Below the pieces are notes generated by a model. That model did no database searches. It saw only the letters and a program-made list of their open reading frames with translations, and had not been told where the DNA came from. From Eledone cirrhosa (taxonomy: Eukaryota), in NCBI GenBank assembly GCA_964016885.1, contig OZ024740.1:127348001-127412000 (forward strand): a stretch of DNA of 64,000 nt, in the 5' to 3' direction. This document shows positions 3,191-50,849 of the stretch, one piece after another. Numbering within the stretch: the first letter of the stretch is position 1; every line of letters begins with the position of its first letter. Both the position numbers and the translations under genes were made by a program.

Positions 3191-4488
3191 AGTATATAAG
3201 CGTGGGTATATGTGTGTGTCACTTCATAAACATGTATGACAGCATTGTCTAGCTGTAAATGTGTTATATAGTCATACATATTCGAATTATTAGTATTTTG
3301 GACTCTACTCACCGACTGATCTACTATGAGCATCTTGGCAAATTTCTTTCACCTTTACTAATGGACATAACTGTTACAAACTAAGTCTACCCCGGTGTAA
3401 TTAAGTATTACCAAAGCACGATCTATCAGGAAGGGCTGGTAAATCATCTAGAATGTTGACATATTGCAGCATTTAAGTCTGCACATTTGCCTGAATTATC
3501 TATAGCAAATCCCCTTATGTGTGCAGGATTAGAATATTGCTGGGAATCACCATAGTTATATTCATGGTGGTTCGGTAACACTGTAAATAATTTGCATTTT
3601 ATCTAATTACTATCATGTAACATTGTCTTAAGTTAAACCACATAAACTGGCATTAATCGGCAATATTTCTTGACAACGTTTATATGTGTGCAATCGGTGC
3701 AGTCATTGTAGTCTGTTGAAGTAGTTTTTTTGTAAATAAGTAGATACAGTTCCATACAATTGCGTGGCATCTGAGACATGTGTCTTCTGAGAATCCTCAA
3801 GAATAAACCAAAATGTCGTTAATGAAATTTGTTAGACGCGAAACATGAGATTATCCGCTGGCGTGACAAACCTTGTTCTTTTGGGATATAGTTGCGCTAC
3901 CACGTTAGACACTGTGTAGGACAATATGAGTTGCAACCCATCAAAAGTATATATAATTATGTTGAATAATACAAAAATATATTAAAATAATTTTGATGAA
4001 GGGAAATCTTAGTGCAGTATTTTGATAATATGCGATTCTATATCTGTCTAAAATAAGTAACTTAGATGCACCACCATTTTTTTTATAAAGGTTAAGCCAT
4101 CTCAAATCCATTCAACACCACAAACCTGATTTTATATAAGTGCCTTAAAAAGTACGTTGGGGCTTTTGGTCAATATACATTGATGAAGATAGCCTTCTTA
4201 AAACAGTTCTACATAGCAAAACCATGGATAACGGTAATTATTTGCTCGGTCAGTTCCGATAAAAATGTTCCAGTGGATACTCTGCAGTAAGTAAAGTGAC
4301 CAGCTAAAAAACACGAGATGTCATTAAGAATCAAATTGACGACTTTCTGAACTTGAGCCTACCAGCATAGCATATATGCATGAAGGACTAGCGTAGCTAG
4401 AAAAGAACAACAACAACTATATGATCCGAAATCTAATTCGATTAAACACGTGTGCCAATTTCTAACTCAGAGATATAGCTGTCTATAT

Positions 4489-27113: not shown

Positions 27114-27216
<103 letters not shown>

Positions 27217-27393
27217 GTTATTAGGAGTATTCCAAAGCTTGGTAGAACAAGTTGTGAGGAAAGTTCTCAACATACGTTAAGGTGACTCGACAGGTTGGTA
27301 GGGATTCTGTAGTGGAAACACGAACAAACGAGGAGTGTAATCAGAGAAGAGAAATAGGACGAAGGTAAAGAGTTACAAAAGAATTTAATCCAC

Positions 27394-27494
27394 GTATTAA
27401 CAATTGTTTCATCAGAATTTCAGTCCATTATTGCTACACTATGTTATAATAGGCAATCAAGAAAGATACTGTAGCATCCGAATTTTCGAAATAC
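27394..27494 (-). ncRNA. variant HHR (U3-C4...A8 core)
   Basis: reverse complement of 30658-30758. Confidence 0.6.
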
Positions 27495-27573
27495 AAAGTT
27501 GGAATGACCTTAGGAAATGAAATAAGGGGTAGTAGTGTAAGATAGAGGAACAGAGAGAGAGAGGGGCAAAAGA

Positions 27574-27640
<67 letters not shown>

Positions 27641-27894
27641 GATAGAGGTAGGGAGAGAAAGAGAAAGAGATAGTGTGGTGTGAGAGGATTTGTAAGGGAG
27701 GGGGAGGAGGCTTGTGTGCTAAAAGTTGTGATGAGTAGAGGGAGAGAGAAGGAAGATAGAATTTTAAGAGGCATTTGGAAGTGGACAGGCGAAAGTCTTA
27801 CCAGAGAACAGATGAAGGAAGAAAGTATTAAATTTCATATATAGTCTATTTTTAGGGGTGTAGAATTGTTTTTAGGGTAGAAAAATAGGTAGTG

Positions 27895-30226
27895 TTAGGA
27901 TTTGGTTGAAGGTTTGAAGTGTGAGAATTTCGCTTTCAGTTTATGCTGGCAAAAAATTGACCTTTCAATTTTGTTGTTAAGTAGTTGGTGGCTTGAGCTT
28001 AGGATATGGAAGAGCTCATTATTACACAACGGGCACGTTTTCATCCCACTCCGGTATGGAGGAGCATATGAGAGTTTGGTCCATTTAAGGGTGTATTGTC
28101 GGTTACTCCCTTTTAAGTGCCAAATTTTGTCGGCGAGAGTCGTTACGCAACGGTGGTGCTTTATTGCGTAACGATGCGTGTACCAACGAGTTTTGAAGGT
28201 GTTTGCAGTGCTGCCAATGTAGTGCTAGGTTTGGTTGCCCGACTCAACCGAGCACCTGTACACTAGGTTTGATTGCAAACATTCGTTATTCAATGGACAA
28301 GTCTCTGGAAGGTGGCAATTACAATTTATGTTATGGGCAGTGTTGGAGTTATAGGTGGGCTGGGATGTGTGTGTGAGTGTGTTTTGTGCATACTGATTGT
28401 TAGTGGGTGGTTGGGTATTAGGTGTATTATTGTGTTGAGTGATTGGGGTGTTGTTGTTACGGAGTCTTTTGGCGTTGAGCATCTTAATGTGTGCGTCTAG
28501 GTTTGGTGCAGTGGAATAAGATAGTCTAATTGTTTTGGTATTAAGTATACTACTATATTTATGTGAATTTGGAAAGTGTTTTTTTATAATTTTGTAGAAT
28601 GTGGAAGGTAAGTTAGAGCTAATAGAAGAGTTAAAAATAGGATTATACCAAATGTAAGATCTACTCCGTGTTCTGTTTTGCTTTGATGTTGCTGTTGTAT
28701 TTGTGGTGTGGTTAGTATTAGGGGGTCTAGGTGCGTGTGTGCGGGTGTTTGTGGGGCGTTTGGCGTATCTGTGGTTATGTGTTTTATGGTTGTGTGGGTC
28801 CATGTATTCTAGTTTGTCGGTGTGGCCAGCCCGTTCTAATGCAGTGTTGTAGTATTCAGCGTGTTGATCGAATATTTGTTGGTTAGATGAGAGGCGGGAT
28901 ATTCTAAGTGATATACTATGTGGCACGGACCTTATAATAGATAGTGGGTGGTTAGAGCTAGTGTGGATGTAGGTGAGGTTCTCATTGTTTTTGTGAAAGG
29001 GTGTGATAATTTGGGTGTTGAGGTTGAAGGTGGCATCTAGGAAGTTAACTACTTTGGTACTATATTCGTAGGTGATTTTAAGGCATAGGCTATCTAGGGT
29101 TCTTCTAATGCTCTTACGGGTTCGTTCTATGTTTTGTTTATTCATGTTTTTAACTAATAGGAGAGCGTCATCTCTATATATTACGCCTTGAAGGTAACTA
29201 ACTTTATTATGTAAGGTGTGGGCTATGTATATACCAACAATATCCGTAACTTGTGCTGAGTCATTAGCACACATAGTTATGTCAAAGTTATCTATTCTAT
29301 CCTTACGTATCCAAAAGTTATTTTCAAATTTAATTATCATCTTTCTAGCTGCTAGGATAATGTTTATTTCGTCGTCGGTTAAGTCAGAGTTGGCTTTCGC
29401 AAATTCTAGTGCCTTGTTTAGAGTATCGGGTGATATGGAGGAGTAATAGTCATTAATGTCGAATTGTATAAAGTTAGAGGTATTTTTGTTATCTATACTA
29501 TTAAACCATTTAATTGTGTCGCTAGTATTGTCCCAAAGTTTAATAACTAGTTTATTCCTTAATTGTATTATTATTCTATCTAAAATATGCTTGCTAATTT
29601 TACCTATGTCTGACTTAGATGGGCATATTAATCTAATAGTGGGTTTATCTAGGAAATCTAATTTGTGGTTCTTAAGATTAAAGGTGGGGGTGCAAGTTGT
29701 CATGGGCTCAGTTCTATCTTCAAGTTCTAGACTTTTGACAATATGGTGTGCTTGTTTGTTGATGTTAAGTAGTGCTTTATTATTGGTTTTCTTATATTGT
29801 TTATGTAATTCCTTTCGTATAAGGTCGTGGTAAGTATTAATGTCCATTGTGTATACGTTAGATGTTTTATCCGCTTTGACAATAATCCCGTTAGTGGTGC
29901 GCAGCTTGTTTAGAAAGGTATCAATGTCTTTATGAAGCTTGTTGGTTTTGAACTTCCTATATTTAGTATTCATGACCATTTTATGTAAGTCCTGTTCGAA
30001 GGCGTCCAATTAGAGGGTTAGTGGGTCGGTTTTTACAGGAGTTGAACCCATATGTATTCTTTCCAGAGTTCGCGGTATAATCCTTACGTCCTTTGTCGAA
30101 GTGGAATGTTTTCCATCTGACGCGGCGTATGAAATCATTGGTGCGCTGGATCGTTCCAAGAGTGTATTCCTTCCTTTTGGGTAAAGGTATATTCTTTAGG
30201 GACATACCGATGTAATGTTTTTCCAT
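27895..30226 (-). pseudogene. Penelope RT + GIY-YIG endonuclease polyprotein (about 775 aa; one frameshift near 30012, one TAG at 28225)
   Basis: MSLKNIPLP, KADKTSN, FIQFDINDYYSSI, FDITM..NDSAQVTDIVG, YRDD, VNFLD, SNHP, CNC..CPL..C, LVYRC..HYIGST..FKTRW..H, CPLCN.E, FCQHK. Confidence 0.93.
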
Positions 30227-30657
30227 GTCCAAGGCGTAAGTTGAAGTGGTGGCTCAACCAGATAGGAGCATAAATTCAGTTATTAGGAGTATTCCAAAGC
30301 TTGGTAGAACAAGTTGTGAGGAAAGTTCTCAACATACGTTAAGGTGACTCGACAGGTTGGTAGGGATTCTGTAGTGGTAACACGAACAACCGAGGAGTGT
30401 AATCAAAGAAGAGAAATATGACGAAGGTAAACAGTTACAAAATAATTTAATCCCTCTACTCATCACAACTTTTAGCACACAACCCTCTTCCCCCTCCCTT
30501 ACAAATCCTCTCACGCCACACTATCTCTTTCTCTTTCTCTCCCTACCTCTATCCCTTTTCTCTCTCTCTCTCTCCCTCTCTTTTGCCTCTCTCTCTCTCT
30601 GTTACTCTATCTTACACTACTACCCCTTATTTCATTTCCTAAGGTCATTCCAACTTT

Positions 30658-30758
30658 GTATTTCGAAAATTCGGATGCTACAGTATCTTTCTTGATTGCC
30701 TATTATAACATAGTGTAGCAATAATGGACTGAAATTCTGATGAAACAATTGTTAATAC
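30658..30758 (+). ncRNA. variant HHR (U3-C4...A8 core)
   Basis: GTATT-TCGAAAA-tTCGGA...TCTGAt-GAAA-CAATTG-TT-AATAC. Confidence 0.62.
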
Positions 30759-30974
30759 GTGGATTAAATTCTTGTGTAACTATTTACCTTCGTCCTATTT
30801 CTCTTCTTTGGTATATATATATATATACATATATACATACACATGCATATACACACACATACACATACATACATACATACATACATACATACATACATAC
30901 ATACATACATACATACATACATACATACATACATACATGCAAGTATCTATTTATGGACAAATATATAAGTATGT

Positions 30975-33879: not shown

Positions 33880-33953
<74 letters not shown>

Positions 33954-34007
33954 TAAAAAAATAATGAATAAAACAATGAAACAGTTCCTTATATTAAACA
34001 AAAAAAG

Positions 34008-34162
34008 TTCATTATTTAACGATCGTTTCTAGGATATATATGTGTTAGAATTGGCATGCATATTCAACAGATCTATGTACAAAATTATACAAAATTATAC
34101 AAACTATCAAGATTAAATATACATACCAAACACACATATATGCCGTCTTCAGAAATAATGAA
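34008..34162 (-). ncRNA. type I HHR (inverted copy)
   Basis: reverse complement of 38322-38476. Confidence 0.82.
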
Positions 34163-34765
34163 ATATATTTATTGATAATAACAACAATTCAAAATTTCAG
34201 GTCCGTTTGGGAACAGAGTTCAAATTGACCAATCAAAATACAAAAAATTTTATGCAGTTTGGTGTGTGTATATACATGTAATTAACTTCGTACACATATT
34301 TATATAAAGATATATGCTCACATGCATACGCATGCCAAAAAGATGTATGCAAATACAAACATTCAAGGCTAATGTCTCTGTAAGTTTATAATCCACAGAT
34401 AAAATGCGTATAGACACATAAATATGAAATAAATGTATACACACATTCATATACTCACACATATACGTACACTCACACACACGCGCGCGTATATGCATAA
34501 ACATACACATAATTACGAACATACATACACACACACACCCCCACACACATATATATGTGCATATAGTATTATCATAAGCATATGGACATTAATGCACGCA
34601 CATAAACACTGCCACACACATTTAGATCAAGATACAGAAATTAGGTGGGAGGGGGGGAGAGGTCAGTATTCAACGGTTTCGGCAGACTGCTTATTTATAG
34701 ATGTATCTATAAACTTAGAAATAAAAAGAAAAGAAAAAGAAAAAAGAAAAAAGAAATATATCAAG

Positions 34766-34812
<47 letters not shown>

Positions 34813-35438
34813 CTACACATACAACACACACACACACACATATATAAACATATACATATATATATATACACATATATACACACATACATATATATATACA
34901 CACACATATACACATATATACACACACATATATACACACACATATATATATATACAAACACATATACATACACACACATATATATATATACAAACAAGCA
35001 AAATATAAAGTATACATCGATATACATACATATAGACATATAAATAAATACACACGCATACACACACATACATATACATACATATACATACACATATATA
35101 TAAACACATACATATACATACATATACATACACATACCATATAAATACACATACACATACACAGACGCATACATATAGAGACACATACATATACACATAT
35201 AAATACATAGACACATACATACATAAACACATATATATATATATATATATATTTTTTTTACACACATATACACATACACGCATACATACATATATATATA
35301 TATACACACATATACATATACATATATATATATACATATATACACATACACATACACATATACACACATATATATATATATATATACATTCACAACACTC
35401 GTATATATATACACACTCATACATATACACACATATAC

Positions 35439-37641: not shown

Positions 37642-37718
<77 letters not shown>

Positions 37719-38321
37719 CTTGATATATTTCTTTTTTCTTTTTTCTTTTTCTTTTCTTTTTATTTCTAAGTTTATAGATACATCTATAAATAAGCAGTCT
37801 GCCGAAACCGTTGAATACTGACCTCTCCCCCCCTCCCACCTAATTTCTGTATCTTGATCTAAATGTGTGTGGCAGTGTTTATGTGCGTGCATTAATGTCC
37901 ATATGCTTATGATAATACTATATGCACATATATATGTGTGTGGGGGTGTGTGTGTGTATGTATGTTCGTAATTATGTGTATGTTTATGCATATACGCGCG
38001 CGTGTGTGTGAGTGTACGTATATGTGTGAGTATATGAATGTGTGTATACATTTATTTCATATTTATGTGTCTATACGCATTTTATCTGTGGATTATAAAC
38101 TTACAGAGACATTAGCCTTGAATGTTTGTATTTGCATACATCTTTTTGGCATGCGTATGCATGTGAGCATATATCTTTATATAAATATGTGTACGAAGTT
38201 AATTACATGTATATACACACACCAAACTGCATAAAATTTTTTGTATTTTGATTGGTCAATTTGAACTCTGTTCCCAAACGGACCTGAAATTTTGAATTGT
38301 TGTTATTATCAATAAATATAA

Positions 38322-38476
38322 TTCATTATTTCTGAAGACGGCATATATGTGTGTTTGGTATGTATATTTAATCTTGATAGTTTGTATAATTTTGTATAAT
38401 TTTGTACATAGATCTGTTGAATATGCATGCCAATTCTAACACATATATATCCTAGAAACGATCGTTAAATAATGAA
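38322..38476 (+). ncRNA. type I HHR with 10-bp stem I and ~115-nt hairpin stem II
   Basis: TTCATTATTT-CTGAAGA-cGGcATATATGTGT...ACACATATATatCCta-GAAA-CGATCG-TT-AAATAATGAA. Confidence 0.85.
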
Positions 38477-38670
38477 CTTTTTTTGTTTAATATAAGGAAC
38501 TGTTTCATTGTTTTATTCATTATTTTTTTAATATTTTATCTTGACTCTGTATTCCGTTTATCTTTCACCGAAAGTGATTTTTCATTGCATCTCTTCTTTC
38601 CATGATATCCGGACTACATTGAGTTCTTCATACGGATTGGACACTACCGTAAACTCTTGGTAGATTTATC

Positions 38671-46836: not shown

Positions 46837-46890
46837 AATTGAAATAGTGAAGAATAACATGGTCAACAGTACAAAAAAGGGGATTTATTT

Positions 46891-47002
46891 ACAGTCTAAC
46901 AATTGCTTCTCTGATTAAGTTGTCTAAAAATTGCTGAACACTAGAAGCAGTGTCACTCAATTTGAAATACGATGCTAGCCCGTTCAGATCATCAGAATCT
47001 GT
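46891..47002 (-). ncRNA. type I HHR (A15.1 to G, degenerate)
   Basis: inverted homolog of 50519-50630. Confidence 0.65.
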
Positions 47003-47855
47003 TACAAAATATATATATATAACCGACAAATTTACAAATTCAAATTACATCATCAATAATAATATTAATAATAAATATAGAGAGAGAAAAAAATAAAGAA
47101 AGAAAGGGAGATAGATGAATGAAAAAAAGAAAGGAAAATGAAAAAGAAAAAAAAAGAAGAGAAAGAAAATGAAAAAATGAGGAATGAATACAGAGAAAAA
47201 TATAGAGAGAAGAAAAAATATGGAGAAATGATGGTAGAAAGAGGAGAGACAAGCATAAGGAGAAATAACGTAGGAGAGAAAGAAAAATAGAGGGAAAATA
47301 ATATCAATAAATCAATAATATCAATAATTATAAAAATAAATACATGAATAAATAAATAAATAAATAAATTACATCCAATATGATAAAAAAAAAGGTACAA
47401 AATGTGCAAAATGAAAAATGAAAATATGAAAATAAATAAGTAAAAAAGTAAAAATGTGCGAATAAAATTTAAACATATTAAGATTATTGAAAGTGGTTTT
47501 TGATAGTGGCTAAAATATAGAGAGATACACAGAGATACACGAAGGTATAAATATGATAATGTTAAATATACTTATGTGTGTATTGGTTATTTTAATAAAT
47601 AAATAAATTAATTAGTTGTAAGTTATATTATATGATAAAATATAATGCCGCAGATGAAATAAATTTAGGGAGAGAAATATAGAGATAGAGAGTGAAAGGT
47701 AGAGATATATAAAATAAGAATGTAAATATAAGAGGTTTTCATGTTGTTCATTGATAGATGATGACAATTATAATAATAATGATGATGATGATGATGATAA
47801 TGTGATATATTAGATCTAAGTGGACATTTCGGGTTATGGAATAGATAAGAAGAAC

Positions 47856-49893: not shown

Positions 49894-50518
49894 GTTAGTG
49901 CCGTGCGTTAAATTAATTGCTCAACCTAATGGGATAAGGGATAACAAAATATCGTTATAGGTAATCCAGTTAGAGGTTGTGAATACTTCTTATTATGGAT
50001 AGTTTTAGCGTATGGCGTTGTTTGACTCAACAAGATATTTTCTTCGCACATTTTTATTTTTTACTTATTTATTTTCAAATTTTAACTTTTTCACATTTTG
50101 TACCATTTTGTATCACATTGGATGTAAATTATTTAGTTATTTATTTATATATTTATTTGTATTTACATTTATTCATGTATTAACGTTTATTCATTTATCG
50201 TTGATATCATTATTTTCACTCTATTTTTCTTTCTCTCCTACGATATTTTCCCTTATGCTTGTCTCTCCTCTTTCTACCATCATTTCTCCATATTTTTTCT
50301 TCTCTCTATATTTTTCTCTATATTCATTTCTCCTTTCTCCATTTCTTTCTCTTTTTGTTTTTGTTTTTCATTTTTCTTTTTCCTTTTCCTCTCTTTCTTT
50401 CCTTTATCTATCTCGATTTCTTTCTTTATTTTTTTTCTCTCGCTATCTTTATTATTAATATTATTATTGATGATGTAATTTGAATTTGTAAATTTGCCGG
50501 TTATATATACTTTTGGTA

Positions 50519-50630
50519 ACAGTTTCTGATGATCGGATCGAGCTAGCATCGTATTTGAATTTGAGTGGCACTACTTCTAGCGTTCAGCAATTGTTAAACA
50601 ACTTAATCAGAGAAACAATTGTTAGACTGT
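50519..50630 (+). ncRNA. type I HHR with ~80-nt stem II domain
   Basis: ACAGTTT-CTGATGA-TCgGAT...ATCaGA-GAAA-CAATTG-TT-AGACTGT. Confidence 0.85.
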
Positions 50631-50849
50631 AAATGAATCTCCTTGTTTGTACTCTTGACCATGTTATTCTTCACTTTTTCAATTGTATTATTCCAAGATT
50701 AACTTACATAGGAATACAAGTGAAATCATAAACTCGTCATCTACGTAAACCTCTTGTTGAGTCAAACAACGCCGTACGTTAAACTATCCATAATAAGAAG
50801 TATTCACAAACTCTAACTGGATGACTACCTATAACGATATTTTGTTATC

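Follow-up and report, generated by a model that had tools for sequence, protein, structure and literature searches.

Both pLTR copies of a Penelope-like element in the genome of Eledone cirrhosa carry the heptamer UCGAAAA at a place where the hammerhead core CUGANGA is expected, which raises the question of whether this sequence is a natural variant core of a self-cleaving ribozyme. The element was analysed within a stretch of 64,000 nucleotides (assembly GCA_964016885.1, contig OZ024740.1, positions 127,348,001 to 127,412,000), referred to here as the window.

The type I hammerhead motif, recognised by sequence, homology and covariation, occupies 30658-30758 (+) in the inverted 5' pLTR copy. 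Sequence comparison showed an identical motif of 101 nt at 27394-27494 (-) in the 3' pLTR, with its core at 27489-27483. On the plus strand the core lies at 30663-30669 (U3 at 30663, C4 at 30664, A8 at 30668). Stem I is formed by GUAUU (30658-30662) and AAUAC (30754-30758), and the base of stem II by UCGGA (30671-30675) and UCUGA (30736-30740), which give five pairs inside a stem II region of 72 nt. GAAA is located at 30742-30745, and the self-complementary stem III segment ACAAUUGU, the predicted dimerisation arm, at 30745-30752; as a monomer, stem III comprises just 2-3 pairs. The three stems surround the core as a three-way junction that is open at stem I, and the cuts are predicted after GUU, at 30753/30754 (+) and 27399/27398 (-). 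The arrangement departs from the consensus at positions 10.1-11.1, where a purine-pyrimidine pair (usually G-C) is replaced by a mismatch of U10.1 (30670) opposite U11.1 (30741). This U-U is a described, tolerated exception (PMC3088659), and is common to the sister families in a sample that had been filtered for U at both positions. The earlier note had described UCGAAAA as bracketed by stems I to III in both pLTR copies, and also a related element with a canonical core and the same stem III; both descriptions are borne out. The hammerhead of the related element, at 50519-50628 (+), has the core CUGAUGA and shares the stem III AACAATTGTT, while its protein is 63% identical to that of the window element (185/294 residues).

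A descriptor set up post hoc (either core, palindromic stem III, stem I of at least 5 pairs, 5/7 stem II base pairs) found nine matches in the window, compared with a mean of 0.015 in 200 local first-order resamples, of which 3/200 contained one match. Folding energy of the motif showed no excess over shuffled sequences (z = -0.15). The hammerhead model was unmatched in an Rfam scan of 30600-30800 at E up to 10, and in the scan of the whole window it was absent among the 150 of 173 rows listed, copies with canonical cores included. An alternative register, through a CUGAUGA that overlaps GAAA (30737-30745), was rejected: it would have no stem II, the bases concerned belong to the 3' strand of stem II, which covaries, and the word is missing in sister families. 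The 5' core region (30661-30679) resembles the end of stem II on its 3' side (30729-30745), forming a short direct repeat that is probably incidental. The window motif is a real hammerhead-shaped RNA motif residing in the pLTR of a Penelope-like element, and is predicted to self-cleave.

Other hammerhead motifs were also observed in the window. Four canonical CUGAUGA type I motifs belong to another family (9522 on the minus strand; 9707, 10236 and 22659 on the plus strand) and are characterized by C-A or C-G at 10.1-11.1, a longer stem III palindrome, and a tandem and inverted layout. In addition, inverted arms at 33945-34821 and 37663-38539, 99.9% identical over 856 bases, flank a stretch of about 2.8 kb with many simple repeats, and each includes a CUGAAGA hammerhead motif (34152, -; 38332, +) with a stem II region of 116 nt.

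The main body of the host element (27208-30453, -) is comprised of a 184-nt repeat, the ORF, the 3' pLTR and the 184-nt repeat again, and ends at a TA repeat. It is accompanied by the inverted, 5'-truncated pLTR copy (30451-30810, +), which spans -344 to +57 from the predicted cut and also ends at a TA repeat. An N-terminal ORF piece with RWK (29984-30253, -) is in a frame different from that of the main piece, with the break near 30010. The main piece (28225-30009, -; 594 aa) comprises DKT, an RT core with YRDD and the CxCx5C linker, and is closed by a premature TAG at 28227-28225. The remaining GIY-YIG-type endonuclease continues past this stop (27895-28224, -), with YIG, CxxC and CxH, named according to PMC8557442. 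The ORF in the window is thus interrupted twice, by the shift of frame near 30010 and by the early TAG; locus L085 is open at these places. A Pfam search of the window ORF gave no match. Translation shows a single ORF with RT followed by a C-terminal endonuclease of the GIY-YIG type. Its motifs RWK, DKT, the CxCx5C linker, and CxxC and CxH around the endonuclease E and N correspond to those given for the Hydra clade by Craig et al. 2021 (PMC8557442), as do the unit of about 3 kb, insertion into (TA)n, and a pLTR with an inverted 5'-truncated copy. On the match of these motifs to the description of the clade, we assign the window element as a Hydra-type Penelope-like element.

The label "youngest", previously given to this element, is unsupported, because another hammerhead-bearing inverted repeat in the same window is 99.9% identical between its arms (33.9-38.5 kb, 856 bases), compared with 8 differences over 360 aligned bases between the two pLTRs. 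Two further elements were observed nearby. The segment 31400-33100 (-) holds the broken ORF of a more distantly related Penelope-like element (about 41% identity to P0001), beside which motif scans found no hammerhead. The element at 47.5-50.9 kb has pLTR copies in opposite orientation (46837-47468, -; 50037-50684, +) whose identity, at just 85%, marks it as an older insertion.

To characterize the core in the family of the window copy (family A), the whole 3.0 Gb genome was searched with a pattern that held both flanks constant and allowed any core. This search disclosed 126 matches, 100 of which were listed and counted by eye. The core is UUGAAAA in 90 of these 100; U3 is present in 99, A8 in 99, and C3 or G8 in none. 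Two read TCGAAAA, both from the window, and eight carry other single changes. Relaxing the pattern raised the number of matches to 290, compared with 36 in the control, i.e. about 250 copies, with UUGAAAA in 89 of 95 listed family rows after five chance rows were removed. Column counts over 59 fetched copies were similar (U3 in 58, U4 in 56, A8 in 59). According to these family-wide counts, C3U and G8A are therefore fixed together. U4, G5, A6, A9, G12-A13-A14, A15.1-U16.1 and H17 are all present in family A; the window copies differ at U4, where they have C4. The earlier note proposed to see whether U3 and A8 are fixed together across family copies, and named a canonical family consensus as the outcome that would speak against its reading. 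The two residues are fixed together, with C3-G8 in relatives, and the consensus is UUGAAAA. UCGAAAA is not the core of the family, and in searches with exact flanks it is confined to the window insertion. We also considered UUG as the product of CpG decay from an ancestral UCG; this was rejected, as UUG is near-universal in a family with 96-98% identity, the neighbouring CpG in UUCGG is mostly retained, and family B likewise has UUG.

The combination of GAAA, stem III and the stem I word of the window motif was found at 3,348 genome sites, 1,132 of them with a matching 5' arm. Sixty regions, representing hammerhead-like rows among the first 73 listed and all located on contig C1, were fetched, and motifs with at least 4/7 matches to either core were kept (n = 68). 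Among these 68 motifs sharing stems I and III, the 3-8 pair is C3-G8 in 47, U3-A8 in 16 and unpaired in 5. A Watson-Crick pair is therefore retained in 63/68; the earlier note had described the change from C3-G8 to U3-A8 as compensatory. Stem II positions 10.3-10.6 covary between families as well (C-G/U-A; G-U/G-C/A-U; G-C/A-U; A-U/U-A). Stems I and III served as anchors for these samples, and only motifs with stem II pairing and U at both 10.1 and 11.1 passed the filter; conservation at such positions is therefore partly built in. The covarying pairs, moreover, trace to a small number of changes at the level of families and do not amount to many independent events.

Family B, whose protein is 71-73% identical to that of family A, differs in stems II and III and has the triplet GUA, as seen in its sequence. 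Its stem III ACGGUCGU is self-complementary through G-U pairs only (L144, L146-L150, L151-L160). The core is UUGAAAA in 93 of the 100 matches listed (427 found), and its retention in this divergent family argues for selection on the core. A tree of RT sequences, built from elements of this genome only and with sister-locus labels assigned by proximity, did not establish families A and B as sisters (support 13.6/47), and U3-A8 may have arisen in them once or more than once; the RT of L081 in this tree is probably that of an unrelated element.

In the predicted ensemble, the monomeric hammerhead fold accounts for 0.07% in the window copy and 0.2% in the family type, while folding prediction gives the palindrome as an 8-pair self-duplex of -6.4 kcal/mol. 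A rare monomer fold together with a palindrome duplex fits the dimer model of Penelope hammerheads. A short palindromic stem III is also a feature of the small Penelope variants that cleave as dimers (Lunse, Weinberg and Breaker, as presented in the review PMC6765202). In a tandem transcript, the palindromic stem III would join two copies, and cleavage would follow GUU. Hammerhead catalysis uses G12 as general base and the 2'-OH of residue 8 as general acid (PMC6155905); U3-A8 would position this 2'-OH as C3-G8 does, and a hammerhead with U3-A8 is reported as active in vitro (PMC3088659). The motif likely serves to cleave tandem transcripts slowly. Taking these observations together, we consider it probable that the family has a type I hammerhead with the core UUGAAAA which is likely a slow dimer cleaver, and that U4C of the window copy is likely private and mildly damaging.

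Ends of genomic copies were inspected with regard to the predicted cut. Fifteen copies extend to the ORF start, and their 5' ends show no pile-up at this position, which speaks against such cleavage; they are dispersed from +125 to beyond -500, and most of these copies read through an intact upstream motif. In the single case of the window copy, the 5' end is at +8. As an observation of its own, 3' ends in family A form two classes relative to the predicted cut: one at about +191, and a shorter one, at about +52 to +61, that occurs mostly on inverted or downstream copies. This suggests two fixed priming or resolution points.

Tolerance of C4 can be evaluated in a sister subfamily with the core CCGAUGA on a normal C3-G8 (e.g. 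L062, L067, L104 and L105). In the 100 copies listed of at least 397, counted by eye, C4 is present in 88, U4 in 11 and G4 in one; five listed rows have G5A, as CpG decay on the opposite strand would produce. To judge from these counts, C4 is probably ancestral in the subfamily, and it evidently did not stop its spread. As C4 is compatible with spread, the window copy may retain some activity, or cleavage may not be strictly needed. Changes expected to lower activity are fixed in high-copy families, U3-A8 in about 250 and at least 427 copies and C4 in at least 397, and U10.1-U11.1 and GUU occur in most families of this Hydra-type lineage. A tentative explanation, to which we give a rather low probability, is that selection favours slow hammerheads in the lineage, which would let tandem RNA persist until it has been reverse-transcribed through the ribozyme; the window motif with U3-C4-A8 would then still cleave.

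It is less probable still that the family hammerhead is a non-cleaving relic or structural element, in which the departures reflect drift and the fold is kept for, e.g., binding of the RT or endonuclease. Departures which would be expected to lower activity are indeed stacked in this motif (U3-A8, U10.1-U11.1, GUU, a long stem II and a stem III of 2-3 pairs), and the 15 copies extending to the ORF start carry no footprint of the cut. Moreover, Penelope hammerheads are poor cleavers in vitro, and Naiad elements spread without canonical hammerheads. However, residues 3 and 8 change jointly, not singly, as the 63/68 Watson-Crick pairs indicate. In addition, G5, A6, A9, GAAA and an allowed triplet persist in two families whose proteins diverge by 27-29%, and a core kept through such divergence points to selection on the catalytic core. 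Slow cleavage by a dimer thus remains the preferred reading of the family motif.

The remaining question is the significance of C4 in the window copy. A whole-genome search for family copies without U4, with exact flanks, returned seven matches against four in the control: the two window copies, one copy with G4, one with A4, and three chance matches. UCGAAAA with exact flanks is therefore represented only by the two repeats of the window insertion, in a search that misses copies with changed flanks, so that a further UCGAAAA copy may exist. The layout indicates that the two repeats of one insertion were copied from one template, and the two window pLTR copies are not independent evidence for this core. 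A comparable case is that of L010 and L011, two repeats of another insertion, which share a substitution in stem I. Because it is confined to two repeats of one insertion with a broken ORF, U4C is, from the sequence comparison, most likely a private mutation. The exact-flank genome search found no donor copy with C4 for the window insertion, so U4C probably arose in this transposition or spread between the repeats later. It would have arisen once, by transcription, reverse transcription or later conversion between repeats, and would for this reason be found in both pLTRs.

Accepting C3U, U4C and G8A together as a natural core under selection in a young and active subfamily would explain its presence in both repeats, and C4 as such is compatible with spread, given the sister subfamily described above. 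A viroid variant with U4C had low activity in vitro and still supported infectivity, and was thus active enough in vivo (cited in PMC3088659). The proposal is nevertheless largely refuted by the exact-flank matches, limited to two repeats of one insertion. In L010/L011, private changes are likewise common to both repeats; the ORF of the element is also broken and daughter copies were not found. We regard it as very unlikely. An assembly or consensus error at C4 is the least credible explanation, since the same C appears in both copies, which lie 3 kb from each other in opposite orientation, and since the change replaces a base and does not alter the length of a homopolymer. A private mutation in one insertion of a UUGAAAA family is the reading retained here.

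The change from C3-G8 to U3-A8 is not new. Cervera and de la Pena 2014 reported about 1,300 matches with U3-A8 in Schistosoma mansoni using a dedicated descriptor, and the covariation was first seen there in a Penelope-like element, Cercyon; their supplement lists an element-associated motif that combines a UUGAAAA core with a GUU triplet (PMC4209133). The family motif described here resembles the minimal hammerheads of Cercyon in being type I, located in a pLTR, with U3-A8, and in its dimer-dependent design; UUGAAAA and GUU are shared with the one listed motif. As far as Cercyon is described in that paper, it differs in its short helix with G10.1-C11.1, compared with the 72-nt stem II region opening with U10.1-U11.1 in E. 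cirrhosa, and in the palindromic stem III and Hydra-type host element of the latter. Both the swap to U3-A8 and the U10.1-U11.1 mismatch are also known among the natural variants of Perreault et al. 2011 (PMC3088659); the available text of that paper gives no combination of U3-A8 with U4C, and no example from this element family. Canonical hammerheads are those reported for Hydra elements in PMC8557442, in contrast to the U3-A8 core found here, although the hammerhead table of that paper may hold a case. In the literature surveyed, in which few subscription papers were included, neither a U3-C4-A8 core nor U4C at the family level was found for Penelope elements. The suggestion in the earlier note of a natural variant ribozyme invisible to consensus searches can therefore be accepted only in part. 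The hammerhead motif stands, whereas the U3-A8 variant was published with its own descriptor in 2014.

With U3-A8 already published, the window motif is largely ordinary, and the UCGAAAA core carries little weight because it is confined to one broken insertion. What the analysis adds is a family-level example of the known swap from C3-G8 to U3-A8, from a clade of Penelope elements whose reported cores are canonical. Descriptors based on CUGANGA only undercount such motifs. Furthermore, fixed U3-A8, fixed C4 and canonical sisters built on the same stems would allow cleavage rate to be compared with copy number. If hammerheads in this lineage are indeed selected to be slow, the lineage would offer a natural set of variants for testing the role of Penelope hammerheads.
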